Below are positions 1,474-22,386 of a stretch of DNA of 64,000 bases, piece by piece. Source of the DNA: Octopus vulgaris (lineage: Eukaryota); NCBI GenBank assembly GCA_951406725.2, contig OX597816.1, positions 155,372,001 to 155,436,000 on the forward strand, written 5' to 3'. Under the pieces are notes generated by a model that saw only the letters and a list, made by a program, of their open reading frames with translations, searched no databases and was not told the origin of the DNA. Position numbers and translations under genes: made by a program. Positions within the stretch are counted from its first letter, which is position 1. Every line of letters begins with the position of its first letter.

Positions 1474-2949
1474 GTGTTTGTGTGTGTGTGTTAAAACTAC
1501 ATATTTATTTCTACTGAGAGCATCGGATTCTTTAAGAAATTTTCATATGGTTTTAATGTATCTGTATTTATGTTTAAAAATCTATACATGAATATATATG
1601 AATACACGTATTTGTGTGCATTATAATTAACTATTACGCCAGCTGTGTGTGGATTTTTTGCATTGTTATATTTATAGAGAGAGGCAAAACGTAGATATCC
1701 TCTAAGCATTTTAATATAGAAGTTGTAAATGCTAATTAGAAGATAACACTTGTGTTATTTTAAAAACCTCCGAAATGTTATATCTAGCTCTAAGTGATAT
1801 ATTTGTATGAAAGTAATAATATACTATGGTATTAATTGATATGGCATATGTATACTCATATATATGCGAAAGCATTTATATATATATATGTATGCGTGAG
1901 TTTGCGTACATCAGAAACCTAAATATAATTAATTTACGAAAAAATTTGATATCGTACAGTATGATACAGCCTTCTGTCTGTTTGATATTTAGATGTCTGA
2001 AACAATGTATCCGATAGTTTGCAGACGATGTAAAATTATTTCTAAGTATATATTTATAGATTATTATTTAAATTGTTGGGAGTAATCGAGGAATTTATTT
2101 TAAGTTGAACGATGTTCACACGCACACGCATGCACACGCGCACAAACACACATAAGTATTGAGACACATTCGCAAACAAACTGAAAATATTTATTTAGGA
2201 ATCATCATGTCCTGAGATTTTAGGTAGAATTGAAAAGAGTCAGTTACATATAGATGGAATTTCCAAACGCACAATCTCACCCATAAACATATAATTATGG
2301 TGTTGCGCCCATATGCATTTGTATAGGTATATGTATATATATGTATCTGTTTTTGTGTATTTGTTATATGCGTGTGTGTTTATTATATGTGTGTGTAGTT
2401 GTGTAGGTGCATGAATACGAGACGTGGTCAATATTTCCATATGTAACTAAATAGTTCTTAAATCTAATATAATAGCCAAATGTTTCTTATCGAAACCACT
2501 TCTGATCTGCTTGGAAGCAGAAGTTGATTTTGTTTCACAAAAGTTTCCCTACTATTAATCACTAGCAGTTTATTTACATCCTTTGACAGAAGTAAATTCA
2601 GAATGGTAAATACATGGCGCCATGTTCCAATTTGAAAGGGTTGTCTTCGGATATTGGTAGAAGATCATTTACGCTGTTTCAACCTCTGCACTACAGCACC
2701 GTTATAGTTACTATAGTTGAGTGTTTATTTACACATAGAGCTGCAATTATATGTATGTACGTACGTATGTATGTATGTTTGTATGTATGTATGTATATAG
2801 GTATGTATATATGTATGCATGTATCTCATTGTTCAGTTTTATTTCAAGATTTCTTGCCAATAGAGAAAGAGCCGATTTCTAACCTAGATTCAAGGCTCCT
2901 TCATTGAAGTTCCAATATTAACTGGCTATTTTTGTATGTACGTATGTAT

Positions 2950-3776
2950 AACAACTGGAATGTTTCCATCAGATGTGCCTCAGACGGATCTATGGCATTA
3001 AGTGGAAGTACCGCATCAGTGATCTTAAAATATTGGAAGGCTCTCGGTGTGAAAGTATAGAAGCTCTTGTGTTAAAGCAAAGGCTCAGATGGAGTGGTCA
3101 TCTGGTCAGGATGAAGGATTCAAGGATGCCAAAACAACTCTTTTATGGAGAGTTTGGTAAAGGAGAACGACCTCCACATAAACCAAAAAAGAGGTATAAG
3201 GACTTGCTGAAGGCTTCCTTAAGAGATGCTTGCATCTCTCCTGACACATGGGAAGGCATAGCTATTGATCGTAGCAGGTGGAGAAGGAATGTGCATGAGG
3301 GGACAGCCACTTTTGAGAAATCTCGAGTTGCACATGAGAAAGTACGGAGGGATGTTAGGAAGGGCGTCGCTGTTACACTTCCAGAAGGGAAGGGTCTTCC
3401 TTTGATGCTGACATGCAATGTCTGTGCAAGACCCTGTCTCAGTAAAGCTGGACTCAAGAGTCATCTTCGTAGTCATAAAGCGAGACAGATGAGTGACAAC
3501 CTGGCCACTGGTGGTGGTGTAACACACCATACTAATCATATCCGTCGGGCATGTGGAAGATAGTGTAATTGGGTAGGAGGACTTAAACGACATGCAAAGA
3601 TACATGAAGCCCAGTTACAACTACAGCCGGCTATTACCAGTAAAGGTTTTAGTTGCCAATTTTGTACAAGACATTGTAGATCTTTTTATTGGGCTAAAAA
3701 GTCACATTCGATCACAGCACCAGTAACAGTTAAGCTTCGTGCAATGGCCATACTCGATAACGAGGGGACAGCCATA
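2950..3776 (+). mobile_element. RTE-clade LINE 3' fragment with C-terminal C2H2 zinc fingers, inserted in (TATG)n
   Basis: CLRRIYGIKW...RLRWSGHLVRMKDSRMPKQLFYGE is the typical RTE RT C-terminus. It is followed by CNVCARPCLSKAGLKSHLRSH and two decayed fingers, with TATG repeats on both sides. Confidence 0.85.
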
Positions 3777-4589
3777 ATGCATATATGTATGAAAGTATGT
3801 ATGTATGTATGAACGTATGTACGTATGTATGCATGTATGTATGCATATGTGCAGATTTGTATGTTTTGCCTTATGTATGTATTCTCATGTATATAGTTGC
3901 ATGCCTAGACAAGCTCATATAAAAGCTCGGAAGCTTTTACAGATTTTTTACAGTTTCAGCGATGGATTGGATCTGTAGTCTTCGAATTAGTTTTCTCCTC
4001 TCTGCTTTTGAGAAGCTTAATTTCTTAAGATTGGCGTTTAGGCAGTGTGTTACATATCCCAGCCCATTTCAGTATTGCAGGGTTATTCATTTGAAGTTGA
4101 CTGGACTTGATCAACATAAATTAAAGTGTTTTGTTGAAGAACACAACGCAGCAGCCAGTCTTGAGTTAGCACTCCACCCTATCCACTAGACCATGCATAT
4201 ATAATATACTGAAATAAGTAGTTCTGTATGTTAAAACTACGTATGTATGCGTGTGTGTATGTATGTATGTATGTATGTATGTATGTATGTATGTATGTAT
4301 GTATGTATGTATGCATGTATGTATGTATGTATGTATGTATGTATGTATGTACGTATGCATGCAAGCACGCATATATATATATATATATAATTAATCCAAA
4401 TACGAGATAATTAATCCAAATAGGCTGTGATTTCGTTGTTTTCTTTCTCTTTGCCATATAGGGGTTGCAAATTCTGTTTGTTTGTGGAGACTTTTTTACT
4501 AGTAGGAGAAATGGTGACCTATTTGGCTGCCATTTCTAATATTTTCGGTATGTGGTTTTGAGCAACTTGTTGCAATTAATCCTTTATTA

Positions 4590-4655
<66 letters not shown>

Positions 4656-4681
4656 GGAACTGAAGGAGAGGTAGAGGGAGA

Positions 4682-9788: not shown

Positions 9789-9943
9789 TAATATACATCT
9801 GTTTGGAGAGACTAAATTTGTGTGTGAGCGTGCGTGTTTGTTTGTGCGTAAACATGTTTCGTAGAAGGAATATGTTATTGCTATTTTATCAGTGATTTTT
9901 CACTCGTATAACTCGTATAATATTTCCTTATTTTTTATTCTAG

Positions 9944-10078
9944 GGCCTATGGTATCACATTGTGGGAGATATTTTCAATGGCCAGCGATCCATATCCTGG
10001 AAAAGTAAACCAAGAAGTCATGCAATTTGTCTTAGATGGGGGAAGATTGCCTGCACCCGAGAATTGTCCTTTGTCTAT
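9944..10078 (+). CDS. ALK: ALK/LTK-type receptor tyrosine kinase, kinase-domain exon (subdomains IX-X)
   Basis: Pyrimidine tract + TAG acceptor and GTAAGC donor; 135 nt, phase 2/2. Encodes (W)AYGITLWEIFSMASDPYPGKVNQEVMQFVLDGGRLPAPENCPLS(I), compared with human ALK [46 protein letters not shown] (recalled). Confidence 0.9.
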
Positions 10079-10194
10079 GTAAGCAATGATTGCCTCTCAT
10101 ATATGTTATTAGGTTGTGACAGACATTTAACATTTAAACATGTACGTACACATGGACAAATAACACACCAGACATATACGTATGTGTGTACACA

Positions 10195-10261
<67 letters not shown>

Positions 10262-10412
10262 TCAAAAAGCAATAAAGATTCAAGTTAATTTAAATGAATT
10301 TACTTGAATATGGTACCTAACTTAGATGCACCAAAAAAAAACTATACTGATTTAACAATACAGTAATGTGGGGTGATTATAAGCGAGAATGAAGCAACAC
10401 GAATGGATAGGT

Positions 10413-10503
10413 TTTTAGTACAATCGTTTCATACAAGGACAGGTTTTATTAAAAGTTGCAAAAATTACAGCATATAAACGTGTCCCGTACTCATCAGCTA
10501 AAA
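10413..10503 (-). ncRNA. Type I hammerhead ribozyme in the 3' pLTR (element sense)
   Basis: Reverse complement of 13861-13951, with the same core and stems. Confidence 0.85.
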
Positions 10504-11971
10504 TACATGTGAGTTCTCTAGACATCCTAGTGGTTGAGGCTATACTCATGAAGTAATGTAGATAATTAAGTAACATAAACAGATTTCAAAAGTTCATTAA
10601 AGTTCTTTAAAGATGATGTACAGTCTTATCACAGAATTTTAAAAAAAGTCTTAATAGCATCACAGAGGAGGTGACCTAATCCATAGTGCACATATGAATT
10701 TCCAGAGATATGATGAGGGATTACATACTCACAGAAGACAAATTTATCCATTGTTAATTACAACGAGGTGGGTTTCAATTCCTGCTTATTAGCATTACAG
10801 AGAGGGTGAATTAATCCTTTGTATAGATGCACAATTTCTAATGGTGTAGATGTAAATTTCCAAGGAATTTCATATTCACAGGCGATAAATTTATCAATGG
10901 TTGAACACAATGAGGTAGGTATCAATTCTTGTTATATGATTAGGTATTTGCCACATTAATCACATTACTGCTATTTACAAGAGGCTGTAGCTATTTAACT
11001 TTTAAAGGCTGAAGGGCTTTCTAGAGCTGTATAGAATAGAAAAGGGAAGGGAATAGAAGAAAAGAGAGAAAATAAAGGAGGAGGGAGCAAAAAGGGGGGG
11101 GGAGGGGGACTCAAAGAGAAGAGAAAAGGAAAAAGAGAATAAGAAGAAGAAAAAGAAAAAAGAGAAAAGAGAAAGAAATAGGGAAGGAAGGGAAAAAAGA
11201 AAAAAGAGGAAAGAAGAAAGAAAAAGAAAAAAAAGAGGGGTCTAGTTATACAGAAGAATTAGTAGACGGCAAGTCTGGTTTTAATTAACAGGCATCTAGG
11301 AATTATAGGAGAATATTATTCTTTGACCAGTAAAACAGCTAATTTATTGCTGTTGGAATCAGCTATGAAATTAAAGAGAATCTAAAGAGATAACACAGTT
11401 AGGGGTTTAGAGGTCAGATGCTAAAATCACCAGAAAATACATTAGGAAAAACTAGGTATAATCTTATCAAAAAGTCATTAAAATTTACTTATTTAATTTA
11501 TTCATTTTATTGTCTTAAGGAGTTGCCGTTATTATTCATACATTGACGGACTACAGGTCAAATCTTAGAAGATCATTTAAAAGGTGTTAGGGGATTGTCT
11601 ATCATAATGAAGATAATCATATTATCACCGAGGGAATAGCCTTATTTATTTAATTTTGAAATAGAATTATGGGTCTATAGTAACTCAATTTAATTAATTA
11701 GAGTTATGCTAATTTAATTAGATTGAGTTAGGAATTAAAATTAAAAATTACAATTAAGATTTAAAATTAAGAATTTAAAAATTGTGAGTTTGAAATTAAA
11801 TAAAGCCTCAATTAAGCAGCGAATGAGTGCTATTCATTTCCCTGTTCTCAAAAAACTGATGCAGATATAAGGAAAAAGATAACTGTAGTGTGAGAACTCT
11901 TAGTTATCTAAAGCAGTGCTATACCAGTAGAAATCAAGTTATATCTATCTATCTAGTTAAGAATATTCTAA

Positions 11972-13537
11972 TCATTTAAAATATTTTAAAGTCTTCAATT
12001 TAGCGTGGACACAAACTTGACCTAGTTCGATATGGTTATTCAATAGGTTTCTATGTTTTCTATGCTTTAGAATTTCATATGTCTCCATGGAGCATAGTTG
12101 ACAACCAACCCTACTATTTTTATACGGAATTGCTCTCCTAACTATTTCCCAATTAAGGTTATAATTTTTATTATTATTTTTGAGTTCCCAGATTTTGTTT
12201 GAAAGTGTGGTGGTACCAGCTTTATGACGTAATTTAAAAGTCGAGATGTGATTTCTAACTCTAGCTAAAAAATTAATTGTACATCCAATGTAACAATATT
12301 TGTTATTCTCCGTGGATATGGTACATTTATAGATTACATTATTTTCCCCACATAGACTAGGTGCCGGGCATTTTGATTTTATTCTACACTTACACACAGG
12401 AGGAACACCTTCAGGATTTGGATTATTCTTGGGTAGATGTTTTAGGTTCCTATTATTTTGATTATCATTTCTATAGTTGGTGCTGATATCTAAAGTATTG
12501 CTATTATTTCTTGATCCTTCTGTTTCATCATTTAGCTCTAAAGTCCTACCATGATTTCTTATATTATTGGTAATGTTAATATTATTGCTAGTCTTTTTAT
12601 CCGACTGCATATTGTTGTTATAGATATCACTAATATTTTCATTCTCCTTATTTTCTCTATTATCCCTATTTCTATTATTTCTATTATTAACATTATTACT
12701 TCTATTAATATCGGCATTGCTATTATTACTATTAATGTTAATGTTATTAGTCATTCTGTGGTTACTAATTTCACCTATGTTTTGATTGTTACTATTGCTG
12801 TTTTTATTGTTGGTAGTATTATTACAATTGCTATTGGTATTCATGCTGATATTATTATTTTTATTTCTATCTTTCCTGGCTAGTTTAATGTTGTTATTAT
12901 TAATCTTAGCGGTATTCATGCTGATATTATTATTTTTATTTCTATCTTTCCTGGCTAGTTTAATGTTGTTATTATTAATCTTAGCTATTAAAGTGGACAT
13001 ATTTGGGAGGGTTGAATAAGAAATCCTAACTGTTTTCCTAGAAATAATTCTATGATATCTATGAGAGATAGGGAAATTTTTTTCCAGAATCACTTTGAAT
13101 TTGTTCTGTATATCCGATTGTATCGCACAGTTGAAAGGAATATTCAGCCATAATATATCTTTTTTATTAAATTTAGGGTTCGTAGAATTATTACTATTCA
13201 TCTCACCGGAGTTATTGTATTTATTACCATTATTTTTATCTTTATTTGTGTGCATCTTAGGTTTATCTACTTCAATATTATCCGAGTTACCTATGTTCTG
13301 GTCAATGTTTCTATTTGAATTGTTGGGCCTGTACGCTAGATTAGCGTTTACCGTTAGTTTAATTCTACTTTTATTTCGGGCTTGGTCTTTATTGCTGCTT
13401 ACATGATTATTGATAACTTCATTATTAGGAATACGTGAGTTCCCCTTATCAACTAATGTAATCTTTTGGTTGTATTTATCGCCTGTGAATATGAAATTCC
13501 TTGGAAATTTACATCTACACCATTGGAAATTGTGCAT
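11972..13537 (-). CDS. Penelope-like element ORF remnant: linker + GIY-YIG endonuclease, RT absent
   Basis: Motifs ILWLNIPF...RISYSTLPNM, CKCRIKSKCP..LC, VIYKC..CYIGCT..ARVRNH, LSNKIWELK, CQLCSME, LLN..CVH. The first ~21 codons, including the ATG, come from the inverted arm. Confidence 0.85.
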   Translation of the reverse strand: MHNFQWCRCKFPRNFIFTGDKYNQKITLVDKGNSRIPNNEVINNHVSSNKDQARNKSRIKLTVNANLAYRPNNSNRNIDQNIGNSDNIEVDKPKMHTNKDKNNGNKYNNSGEMNSNNSTNPKFNKKDILWLNIPFNCAIQSDIQNKFKVILEKNFPISHRYHRIISRKTVRISYSTLPNMSTLIAKINNNNIKLARKDRNKNNNISMNTAKINNNNIKLARKDRNKNNNISMNTNSNCNNTTNNKNSNSNNQNIGEISNHRMTNNININSNNSNADINRSNNVNNRNNRNRDNRENKENENISDIYNNNMQSDKKTSNNINITNNIRNHGRTLELNDETEGSRNNSNTLDISTNYRNDNQNNRNLKHLPKNNPNPEGVPPVCKCRIKSKCPAPSLCGENNVIYKCTISTENNKYCYIGCTINFLARVRNHISTFKLRHKAGTTTLSNKIWELKNNNKNYNLNWEIVRRAIPYKNSRVGCQLCSMETYEILKHRKHRNLLNNHIELGQVCVHAKLKTLKYFK

Positions 13538-13860
13538 CTATACAAAGGATTAATTCACCCTCTCTGTAATGCTAATAAGCAGGAATTGAAACCCACCTCG
13601 TTGTAATTAACAATGGATAAATTTGTCTTCTGTGAGTATGTAATCCCTCATCATATCTCTGGAAATTCATATGTGCACTATGGATTAGGTCACCTCCTCT
13701 GTGATGCTATTAAGACTTTTTTTAAAATTCTGTGATAAGACTGTACATCATCTTTAAAGAACTTTAATGAACTTTTGAAATCTGTTTATGTTACTTAATT
13801 ATCTACATTACTTCATGAGTATAGCCTCAACCACTAGGATGTCTAGAGAACTCACATGTA

Positions 13861-13951
13861 TTTTAGCTGATGAGTACGGGACACGTTTATATGCTGTAAT
13901 TTTTGCAACTTTTAATAAAACCTGTCCTTGTATGAAACGATTGTACTAAAA
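13861..13951 (+). ncRNA. Type I hammerhead ribozyme in the inverted pLTR (host pre-mRNA sense)
   Basis: Stem I TTTTAG/CTAAAA; core CTGATGA at 13867-13873; stem II GTACGGGAC/GTCCTTGTAT with one bulge; GAAA at 13934-13937; short stem III AC(GATT)GT; cleavage triplet GTA ending at 13945. Confidence 0.85.
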
Positions 13952-14307
13952 ACCTATCCATTCTTGTTGCTTCATTCTCGCGTATATATATATATATATA
14001 TAGTGGATGCAGACATACGGAATTTTTACACGTTCACAAAATTCAACCTCTTTCAGTCATTATCAGTTAAGACTTGTCGCTTCAACAAGTAGCAAGATGA
14101 TTTCTAATAATTCAAACTTCCTGTAACGACAGTTTCAGTTTCTAGAAATTATATCAATCGAACATATATATTTGATAAATATATTGTCCGTGCATCGTTA
14201 ACAGTCAAGCAATCACTTCTACCATAAATAGTCTTGCATTTTTCTTTACATGGCGTGTCTATGATAAAACCCATATTTATCTTTTAATCTACTGAATTCT
14301 CTTACAG

Positions 14308-14398
14308 ATCTTACATAATGACTTGCACTTGGGACTCTAATCCAGATGCACGACCGTCGTTCGCAACCATCGTTCAGAAACTCCAATACTGCTATGAG
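14308..14398 (+). CDS. ALK: ALK/LTK-type RTK, kinase-domain exon (subdomain XI)
   Basis: CTTACAG acceptor and GTAATC donor; 91 nt, phase 2/0, compatible with both neighbouring exons. Encodes (I)SYIMTCTWDSNPDARPSFATIVQKLQYCYE, compared with human ALK [31 protein letters not shown] (recalled). Confidence 0.9.
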
Positions 14399-21150: not shown

Positions 21151-21213
21151 TTTGTTTTTTATGTATATAATGTAATGTATAGTTTGTTAAATGTATTCAT
21201 TCTTTCAATTCAG

Positions 21214-22386
21214 GACCCGAACACGGCAACTTATACTTTACCGACGTTCACATACAACCTTTCAAAAGAAACTTTTGTTGAGCTTCCCGATCTACAAGAG
21301 AACTCCCTTTCTAAAAGAGACACTAAGAAATGTTCTCATCCTTCTTTGTTTTCTGAATCACTTTCTGAAATATCCGAACAACATTCATCGAACAGACAGA
21401 TTAACAATGACAGTAACGAACTCAGTTCTTGCTCGGATGACAACTACAAGAATTCTACTAAAGAGGCCCACCAAGATATTAACGCAGAACAATGTAATCA
21501 TAAAGGTAACCGCCATGTTCCTGGAATACGTTCTTATATCAATTATTTGTACATGAACCAAGAATTACCAGACCCTAAGAATGAGAATATCTCACAGTTT
21601 GACTCCAGAGAAAATACTACTGAAAACCAAGCAGATAAGAATTCTGATAACAACCTTCTTCACAGTCAGCATAATCATAATCATCATCCTACGACTACTT
21701 CTTTTCCATCTCCTACTCCTACCCCTCATACTGATAATCATCATTATCATCTCCAACCGCAACTACAAGACAGTCCACGTCAATCAAATCCACAAAGCCA
21801 GCAACAAAGCCGCACTAGAAGCAGTAGCAGTAGCAGCAGCAGTAGTAACAACATTAACAATCACAATAACAACAGTCACTATCAACAACAACAACCAAAT
21901 ATGCTGGAGTTAATGCAACATGATAGTCTTACTAAAACGTCCGATTTTCAAAATGAGGAAGATAAAACAAACTGTCGGAAACAACAACAAATACAACCGC
22001 AGCAACAGCAACAACAACAACAACAACAACAACAACAGGAGTTACAGCTACAGCAGCAGCTGCAAAACTTAATTGGCCAAGAAGACGATTTGAATAATAA
22101 ACAACAAAATAAAGAACCACCCCAACAACAGCTTGAACAACTTGAAGAAACTGAAGAATATGACCGTTATAATGATGATTCTTTCTCTTTGTCACCTACA
22201 AAGGTACCATTGCTTTCATCCACAGACTCTGATGTAAGTAATTATGAAAACGATAGCTTTCCTAAGAATTCACGCTGCAAAAGTCTCCGAAAATCATCGC
22301 AAAATTCAAACTATATTCCGATGAGAAAGATACAGGATAGCCCAACCGAATCAAAGTACAGCAATTTTGATACAAACTCTATTTAA
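21214..22386 (+). CDS. ALK: Terminal coding exon of the ALK/LTK-type RTK: 390-aa low-complexity C-terminal tail
   Basis: TTCTTTCAATTCAG acceptor, phase 0. Starts DPNTATYTLP (human ALK DPDVINTALP, recalled) and is open for 390 codons to TAA. Contains polyQ, polyS and His/Asn tracts. Confidence 0.85.
   Translation, partial: DPNTATYTLPTFTYNLSKETFVELPDLQENSLSKRDTKKCSHPSLFSESLSEISEQHSSNRQINNDSNELSSCSDDNYKNSTKEAHQDINAEQCNHKGNRHVPGIRSYINYLYMNQELPDPKNENISQFDSRENTTENQADKNSDNNLLHSQHNHNHHPTTTSFPSPTPTPHTDNHHYHLQPQLQDSPRQSNPQSQQQSRTRSSSSSSSSSNNINNHNNNSHYQQQQPNMLELMQHDSLTKTSDFQNEEDKTNCRKQQQIQPQQQQQQQQQQQQQELQLQQQLQNLIGQEDDLNNKQQNKEPPQQQLEQLEETEEYDRYNDDSFSLSPTKVPLLSSTDSDVSNYENDSFPKNSRCKSLRKSSQNSNYIPMRKIQDSPTESKYSNFDTNSI

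Follow-up and report, generated by a model that had tools for sequence, protein, structure and literature searches.

A 5'-truncated Penelope-like element with inverted, hammerhead-bearing arms in an intron of an ALK/LTK-like receptor tyrosine kinase gene of Octopus vulgaris

The insertion and its host gene

The stretch of DNA analysed here (the window) comprises 64,000 nt of the Octopus vulgaris genome (GenBank assembly GCA_951406725.2, contig OX597816.1, positions 155,372,001-155,436,000 of the forward strand). It contains a retroelement insertion with long inverted arms and a hammerhead ribozyme motif, located in an intron of a receptor tyrosine kinase gene. An initial annotation had read this arrangement as a self-cleaving ribozyme with its own antisense shield, which could act as an editing-sensitive switch on the kinase. 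Unless indicated otherwise, positions are those of the window.

The intron is of the GT-AG type and measures 4,229 nt (10079-14307), with the donor GT at 10079 and the acceptor AG at 14306-14307. When spliced in frame, the flanking exons (9944..10078 and 14308..14398, both + strand) encode a tyrosine kinase C-lobe, the kinase domain ending in the downstream exon. The upstream exon matched PF07714 (E 9e-11), had ALK among its best solved-structure matches and was 98% identical to an Octopus bimaculoides protein. The Argonauta homologue P0120 gave 12 exon matches, which are distributed between -112 kb and +14 kb and are all + strand; its ALK_LTK_GRD match was weak (17.2 bits, under the curated cut-off of 24.5). 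Judged by these sequence matches, the host is an ALK/LTK-like receptor tyrosine kinase gene with + strand transcription, in line with the receptor kinase named in the initial annotation. The last coding exon of the gene (21211..22386, +, ends approximate) was found by tblastn, with a match of 88% to residues 93-488 of P0119, the orthologous fragment of O. bimaculoides. The source name of P0119 is 'alpha-protein kinase 1', but it represents a C-terminal fragment of an ALK/LTK-like tyrosine kinase, and the name is probably a mis-annotation.

The inverted arms (10383-10890 and 13474-13981) are 508 nt each, 99.6% complementary and spaced by 2,583 nt. They had been described as 508 bp long with about two differences, and a count gave exactly two mismatches, at 10400/13964 and 10839/13525. 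The distance from the donor to arm 1 is 304 nt and that from arm 2 to the acceptor 326 nt, in agreement with the ~300 and ~330 nt reported at first. However, the whole element begins ~180 nt from the donor, as a tail had been overlooked. This tail extends to the left of 10383 for ~121-127 nt, to ~10256-10262 (10262..10382, - strand). It corresponds to the beginning of the next tandem unit and, in L049, a full-length sister copy, matches positions 1-127 of the unit at 99%. The whole insertion spans ~10260-13982 (~3.72 kb) and is located within a (TA)n tract. The left half of this target is the AT part of an (AC)n(AT)n microsatellite (10190..10261) and the right half, as read in the sequence, is the (TA)n at 13983..14002; other family ends likewise adjoin (TA)n. 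With the corrected boundary, the intron before insertion was ~508 nt, which confirms the growth from ~0.5 kb to 4.2 kb that had been noted initially.

Arm 1 (10383..10890, -) is the element's own 3' end, the pseudo-long terminal repeat (pLTR), in which the hammerhead (10413-10503) is antisense to the host pre-mRNA. It is followed by a non-coding 3' region (10891..11971, -; alignment to a full-length unit) and by a 5'-truncated open reading frame (ORF; 11972..13473, -), which has a thumb, an Asn-rich insert, a Cys linker and a GIY-YIG-type endonuclease with CCHH, without the reverse transcriptase (RT) core. Arm 2 (13474..13981, +) is an inverted, 5'-truncated second copy of the element 3' end, joined head to head to the element body through a 2-nt microhomology. 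In terms of the full-length unit, the window copy consists of the 3' two-thirds (positions 1590-4679) and an inverted copy of the last 508 nt.

The C at 13696, a variant rare in the family (T in 41 of 43 aligned copies), is common to both window arms, indicating that the arms derive from one event. Both mismatches, 10400 and 10839, are on the arm 1 side, where the letters deviate from almost every family copy and run contig, which reflects either private mutations or assembly errors. An exact in-frame tandem duplication of 75 nt, absent from L049, is located in the Asn-rich insert of the truncated ORF (12836-12985), and the arm 2 junction lies inside a degenerate ~147-nt repeat of the element 3' region (13474-13700, 10660-10930). 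Elsewhere in the window, two pairs of near-identical short translated stretches, ~27950 and ~29280 (-) and ~38400 and ~41600 (-), suggest two further repeat families with two copies each.

Contigs of four runs (two guessed to be DNA, one of unclear kind and one guessed to be RNA) were inspected over 9800-11000, and none of those listed bridged the left junction. One contig of the guessed RNA run covers the upstream exon and continues unspliced into the intron; it may be DNA.

Identity of the element

The truncated ORF was 95% identical to an intact family ORF of 954 aa, present in L049 (2586-5531, -). The intact ORF shows the motifs ADKT, FD, MGS, YRDD and Y-x-x-G, and encodes an RT followed by a C-terminal GIY-YIG-type endonuclease with CCHH, in which C912, C915, C942 and H944 are invariant. 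Between RT and endonuclease lies a Cys linker (C815, C817, C823 and C829, invariant in 11/11 aligned proteins). A protein search yielded 118 homologues of the 954-aa ORF, one of them with a precomputed PF00078 match. When the truncated and the full element ORF were themselves compared with Pfam and PDB, no match was obtained, and five ORF homologues likewise had none above cut-off.

By these sequence characteristics the element is an endonuclease-bearing Penelope-like element (PLE), 5'-truncated, from a young, high-copy family. Its four-Cys linker, a feature common to Neptune and Nematis, together with known motifs, marks it as Neptune-like. The initial annotation had already recognised a PLE with a hammerhead motif, and RT-endonuclease ORF, pLTR motif and inverted-copy architecture are all present. 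A DNA transposon with terminal inverted repeats was ruled out by the RT-endonuclease ORF inside the element and by the variable length of the arms, and a non-coding retrozyme by the coding body.

The L049 locus (G000:C2 ~37.617-37.628 Mb) is a mirror-image insertion of 10.6 kb with two full-length units, the ORF being intact in one and frameshifted in the other. It marks the family as recent and potentially still active.

Geometry of the family and origin of the arms

The 202-nt ribozyme end was used to search the octopus' own genome. The search returned 1,135 candidates, of which 40 were scored, resulting in 42 matches; all of these were 100% identical to the query and 41 were full-length. 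The 42 matches correspond to 29 insertions (L032-L060, G000 C1-C3), all of which were retrieved, and these are top-scoring young copies on three contigs. The very young age of the family argues against conservation at an orthologous site.

An inverted arm was present in 21/29 insertions, and all 21 showed the (-,+) order with the 3' ends outward. With this outward arrangement, transcription across the locus reaches the antisense arm before the sense ribozyme, irrespective of its direction. The antisense-first order seen in the window is thus forced by the geometry of the family, and no selection is needed to explain it.

In the 20 simple inverted loci the tail was invariably at one end only, and the ribozyme was covered by the inverted arm in 18 of them. 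Arm length across the family varied from 96 to ~2,590 nt, and a tandem arrangement of units was present in L049/L050. Divergence between the two arms of a simple inverted locus had a median of 0.27%, versus 0.80% to other copies. The window arms diverge by 0.39%, and the arms were equally or more alike in 12 of the 20 loci. Selection keeping the arms identical was ruled out, as the identity in the window is typical of sister copies.

In this family the element ends at one of two fixed 3' positions, the first 36 nt past the ribozyme cut and the second ~125 nt beyond the first. Each of the 20 simple inverted insertions combines the two, and both border on (TA)n. These two fixed ends fit the priming of two cDNAs from two nicked strands. 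In such a scenario, the element protein would nick both strands of the TA tract, the cDNAs would be primed at the two fixed sites in the RNA, and they would subsequently be joined head to head. As a matter of speculation, a ribozyme-mediated RNA dimer could be the source of both templates.

The hammerhead motif

The hammerhead motif in pre-mRNA sense is located in arm 2 (13861..13951, +). It is of type I, with a 6-bp stem I, a 60-nt stem II and a 2-bp palindromic stem III (ACGAUUGU). The motif had been called intact-looking. This is correct for the conserved core (CUGAUGA at 13867, GAAA at 13934 and GUA at 13943-13945) and for the predicted cut site after A13945, but not for the stems, as stem III is only 2 bp and the closing pair of stem II (10.1-11.1) is G-U, not G-C. 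Stem III had a pair probability of at most 0.017 and forms, together with its loop, a self-complementary octamer.

An exhaustive search for the motif, covering both strands of 264 kb, yielded only the hammerhead motif of the PLE family itself (3 matches), so the motif is not a chance occurrence. No match at the gathering score was obtained in an Rfam scan of the window, and a second sense copy of the motif was not found within the 264 kb. A lone family copy of 510 nt (L074), oriented antisense to the kinase gene, lies upstream, ~134 kb from the start of the window. Provided that the transcript includes it, this copy could be a further pairing partner of arm 2.

In ViennaRNA, the probability of the three-stem monomer fold was 3e-3 (101-nt context, 37 C); with a wider context or at 18 C it fell to 2e-5 to 7e-8. 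The dimer fold amounted to -31.6 kcal/mol, versus -12.5 per free monomer. On the basis of this modelling, the motif is predicted to be of the dimer-dependent type and nearly inactive as a lone monomer. The modelled inactivity agrees with published assays, in which a single motif of S. mansoni did not cleave and dimers cleaved little. The Anolis PLE hammerhead cleaved only with protein (PMC11167929), and one of nine Xenopus hammerhead dimers cleaved (10.64898/2026.07.22.740005).

Arm pairing, editing and splicing

The initial annotation stated that the antisense arm is transcribed before the ribozyme and can pair with it. The first point follows from the (-,+) order, and the second is supported by the predicted energies: the arm duplex reached -902 kcal/mol, with -152 kcal/mol over the ribozyme segment versus -10.5 for the ribozyme fold. 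Any transcript across the insertion would meet the antisense arm first, and zipping of the arms is predicted to start before the ribozyme folds, as 387 nt of arm 2 precede the ribozyme start. The hammerhead, which by itself probably has hardly any activity, would be locked in the resulting 508-bp duplex, and in this model pairing as a block on the ribozyme is probably redundant. The idea of a dedicated shield or switch was not supported, because the order is forced by geometry in 21/21 cases and the motif is of the dimer type, with little activity predicted for the single copy.

With its 337 adenosines, the modelled arm duplex is likely an ADAR substrate. Random editing of both strands was simulated. 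The duplex energy was barely changed when inosine was treated as G. At 50% editing, with inosine treated as non-pairing, the ribozyme segment had a mean of -54 kcal/mol (range -82 to -34, 30 runs). This is still far below the ribozyme fold, which means that the simulated editing leaves the ribozyme locked; the initial annotation had suggested that adenosine-to-inosine editing could open the duplex. Moreover, the six adenosines of the core and the cut site, which we take to be required for catalysis, would all escape editing with a probability of 0.26 at 20% editing and 0.016 at 50%. In the model, an edited duplex would remain paired. Catalytic adenosines would tend to be hit, so that editing is expected to inactivate the ribozyme instead of freeing it. 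That editing occurs is plausible, because squid editing sites in introns and untranslated regions tend to overlap repeats (PMC9068888).

It is scarcely credible that the expression of the receptor kinase is tuned by an active ribozyme that is released once editing has melted the duplex. All parts for such a switch are present in the right order, and the intronic ribozyme of mouse CPEB3 can tune its host (PMC10274809). However, even the weakest run at 50% editing stayed well below the ribozyme fold, the chance that all six adenosines are spared at this level is minimal, and no dimer partner is located nearby in the 264 kb. In addition, the insertion is of very recent origin, and sister copies have arms that are at least as well preserved.

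Looping out of the insertion had been suggested to bring the splice sites closer together. The intron is short for the kinase gene, in which 9 of the 12 inter-exon gaps exceed 4.2 kb (some gaps may hide exons), so that a need for loop-out was ruled out. We expect that the intron would be spliced normally. Reporter introns were still spliced after a hammerhead cut, whereas a faster hepatitis delta virus (HDV) ribozyme blocked splicing (PMC2995048, citing Dye 2006 and Fong 2009).

The duplex itself could also act, in that the 508-bp hairpin, which begins 304 nt from the donor, is hyper-edited or diced and mildly alters the splicing or level of the kinase mRNA from the insertion allele, with a slightly harmful or neutral outcome. 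The near-perfect pairing, the number of adenosines and the overlap of squid intron and untranslated region sites with repeats would all suit such an effect. We consider it very unlikely, as both arms are within one intron and 326 nt remain free before the acceptor.

Interpretation of the insertion

The insertion is very probably a recent, 5'-truncated, Neptune-like PLE copy with the standard head-to-head arms of its family, in which the locked hammerhead is a by-product and not a switch. The family identity, the boundaries, the (TA)n target, the geometry and the arm identity on which this reading builds are established.

Several points weigh against it. Two-armed loci may be over-represented among the 29 sampled insertions. 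Neither Mg2+ nor tertiary contacts enter the folding model, which was run without a known-active hammerhead as a control; with its 2-bp stem III and long stem II kept, the motif may be more active than the minimal motifs used in published assays. By analogy with mouse CPEB3, which is modulated by its intronic ribozyme, such ribozymes can matter, and 10.64898/2026.07.22.740005 reports that hammerhead repeats are depleted in Xenopus introns.

This depletion would also be expected if shielding were a passive effect at the population level, without any regulation. The motif would then have some nascent activity, lone or tandem sense copies in introns would be mildly harmful, and head-to-head copies would silence themselves. 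The predicted duplex is overwhelming compared with the ribozyme fold, the geometry shields in either orientation, and the lone copy near the kinase gene is antisense (n=1, upstream of the mapped exons). Nevertheless we regard this explanation as unlikely, since the motif is of the dimer-dependent type with a rare monomer fold in the model, hammerhead-cut introns are tolerated in the reporter assays cited above, and the inverted form is the default at 21/29 loci, whatever their gene context may be. The flanks of eight non-inverted copies (144 frames, selected by a crude composition score, without a control of inverted loci) revealed no host gene; nine of the 144 frames had Pfam matches, all to RT or transposase.

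An extension of this idea, to which we attach a similarly low probability, is that head-to-head PLE insertions are self-silencing cassettes, which colonise introns purged of lone and tandem sense copies and seed octopus genes with long editable duplexes. If true genome-wide, self-silencing would explain why ribozyme-bearing elements are tolerated in genes, and it would add editing substrates in coleoids. The many natural inverted and lone copies of the family offer a test of selection against intronic hammerheads. By itself, the insertion in the kinase gene matters little, as it is one of many copies, in the usual configuration, of a retroelement family that is apparently active.

Antisense shielding of PLE hammerheads was not proposed in the literature searched, the coverage of which was incomplete, and the idea may be unpublished.

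Comparison with known systems

The architecture of the octopus insertion has precedents. Inverted 5' copies, one-sided tails and pairs of hammerheads on opposite strands have already been described (PMC8557442, PMC3846280, PMC4209133). The closest resemblance is to the complex PLE insertions of Craig et al. 2021 (PMC8557442, Fig. 2 legend) and of Adineta vaga Pen2a (PMC3846280). These insertions share with the octopus copy a 5'-truncated body, an inverted 5'-truncated copy forming flanking inverted repeats, a tail at one end, a head-to-head junction and an ORF with an Asn-rich insert, a feature described in rotifer PLEs as well. Targeting of (TA)n is described there for the Naiad clade, and the octopus element is likewise found in (TA)n. 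Host and family are different. The octopus tail is ~121-127 nt long and stops before the ORF start (unit position 175), whereas the published tails are 30-40 nt, and the spacing of the Cys linker in the octopus protein differs from the CX2-5CxxC given in PMC8557442.

The motif itself resembles the metazoan PLE hammerheads described by Cervera and de la Pena 2014 (PMC4209133) in being a type I motif in the terminal repeat, in having a short palindromic stem III suited to dimers and in occurring as close pairs on opposite strands. It deviates from them in its 60-nt stem II, in the G-U replacing the conserved G10.1-C11.1 and in the lack of an extra base after A9.

For the mode of insertion, Poseidon PAc of Anolis (Frangieh et al. 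2024, PMC11167929) is informative. It cleaves and extends both strands at AT-rich DNA and has an internal RT start, which fits the two fixed ends of the octopus family. Double-strand cutting and extension combined with an internal start are the likely mechanism by which these ends arise. PAc belongs to a different clade and its ORF starts inside the ribozyme, whereas the octopus ORF starts ~210 nt after the cut site.

Finally, the CPEB3 ribozyme (PMC10274809) is similar in being an intronic self-cleaving motif that can be blocked by an antisense strand. It is HDV-like and present at a single locus, with measured activity and effect, whereas the octopus motif, predicted to be of the dimer type, is part of a repeat copy of very recent origin.

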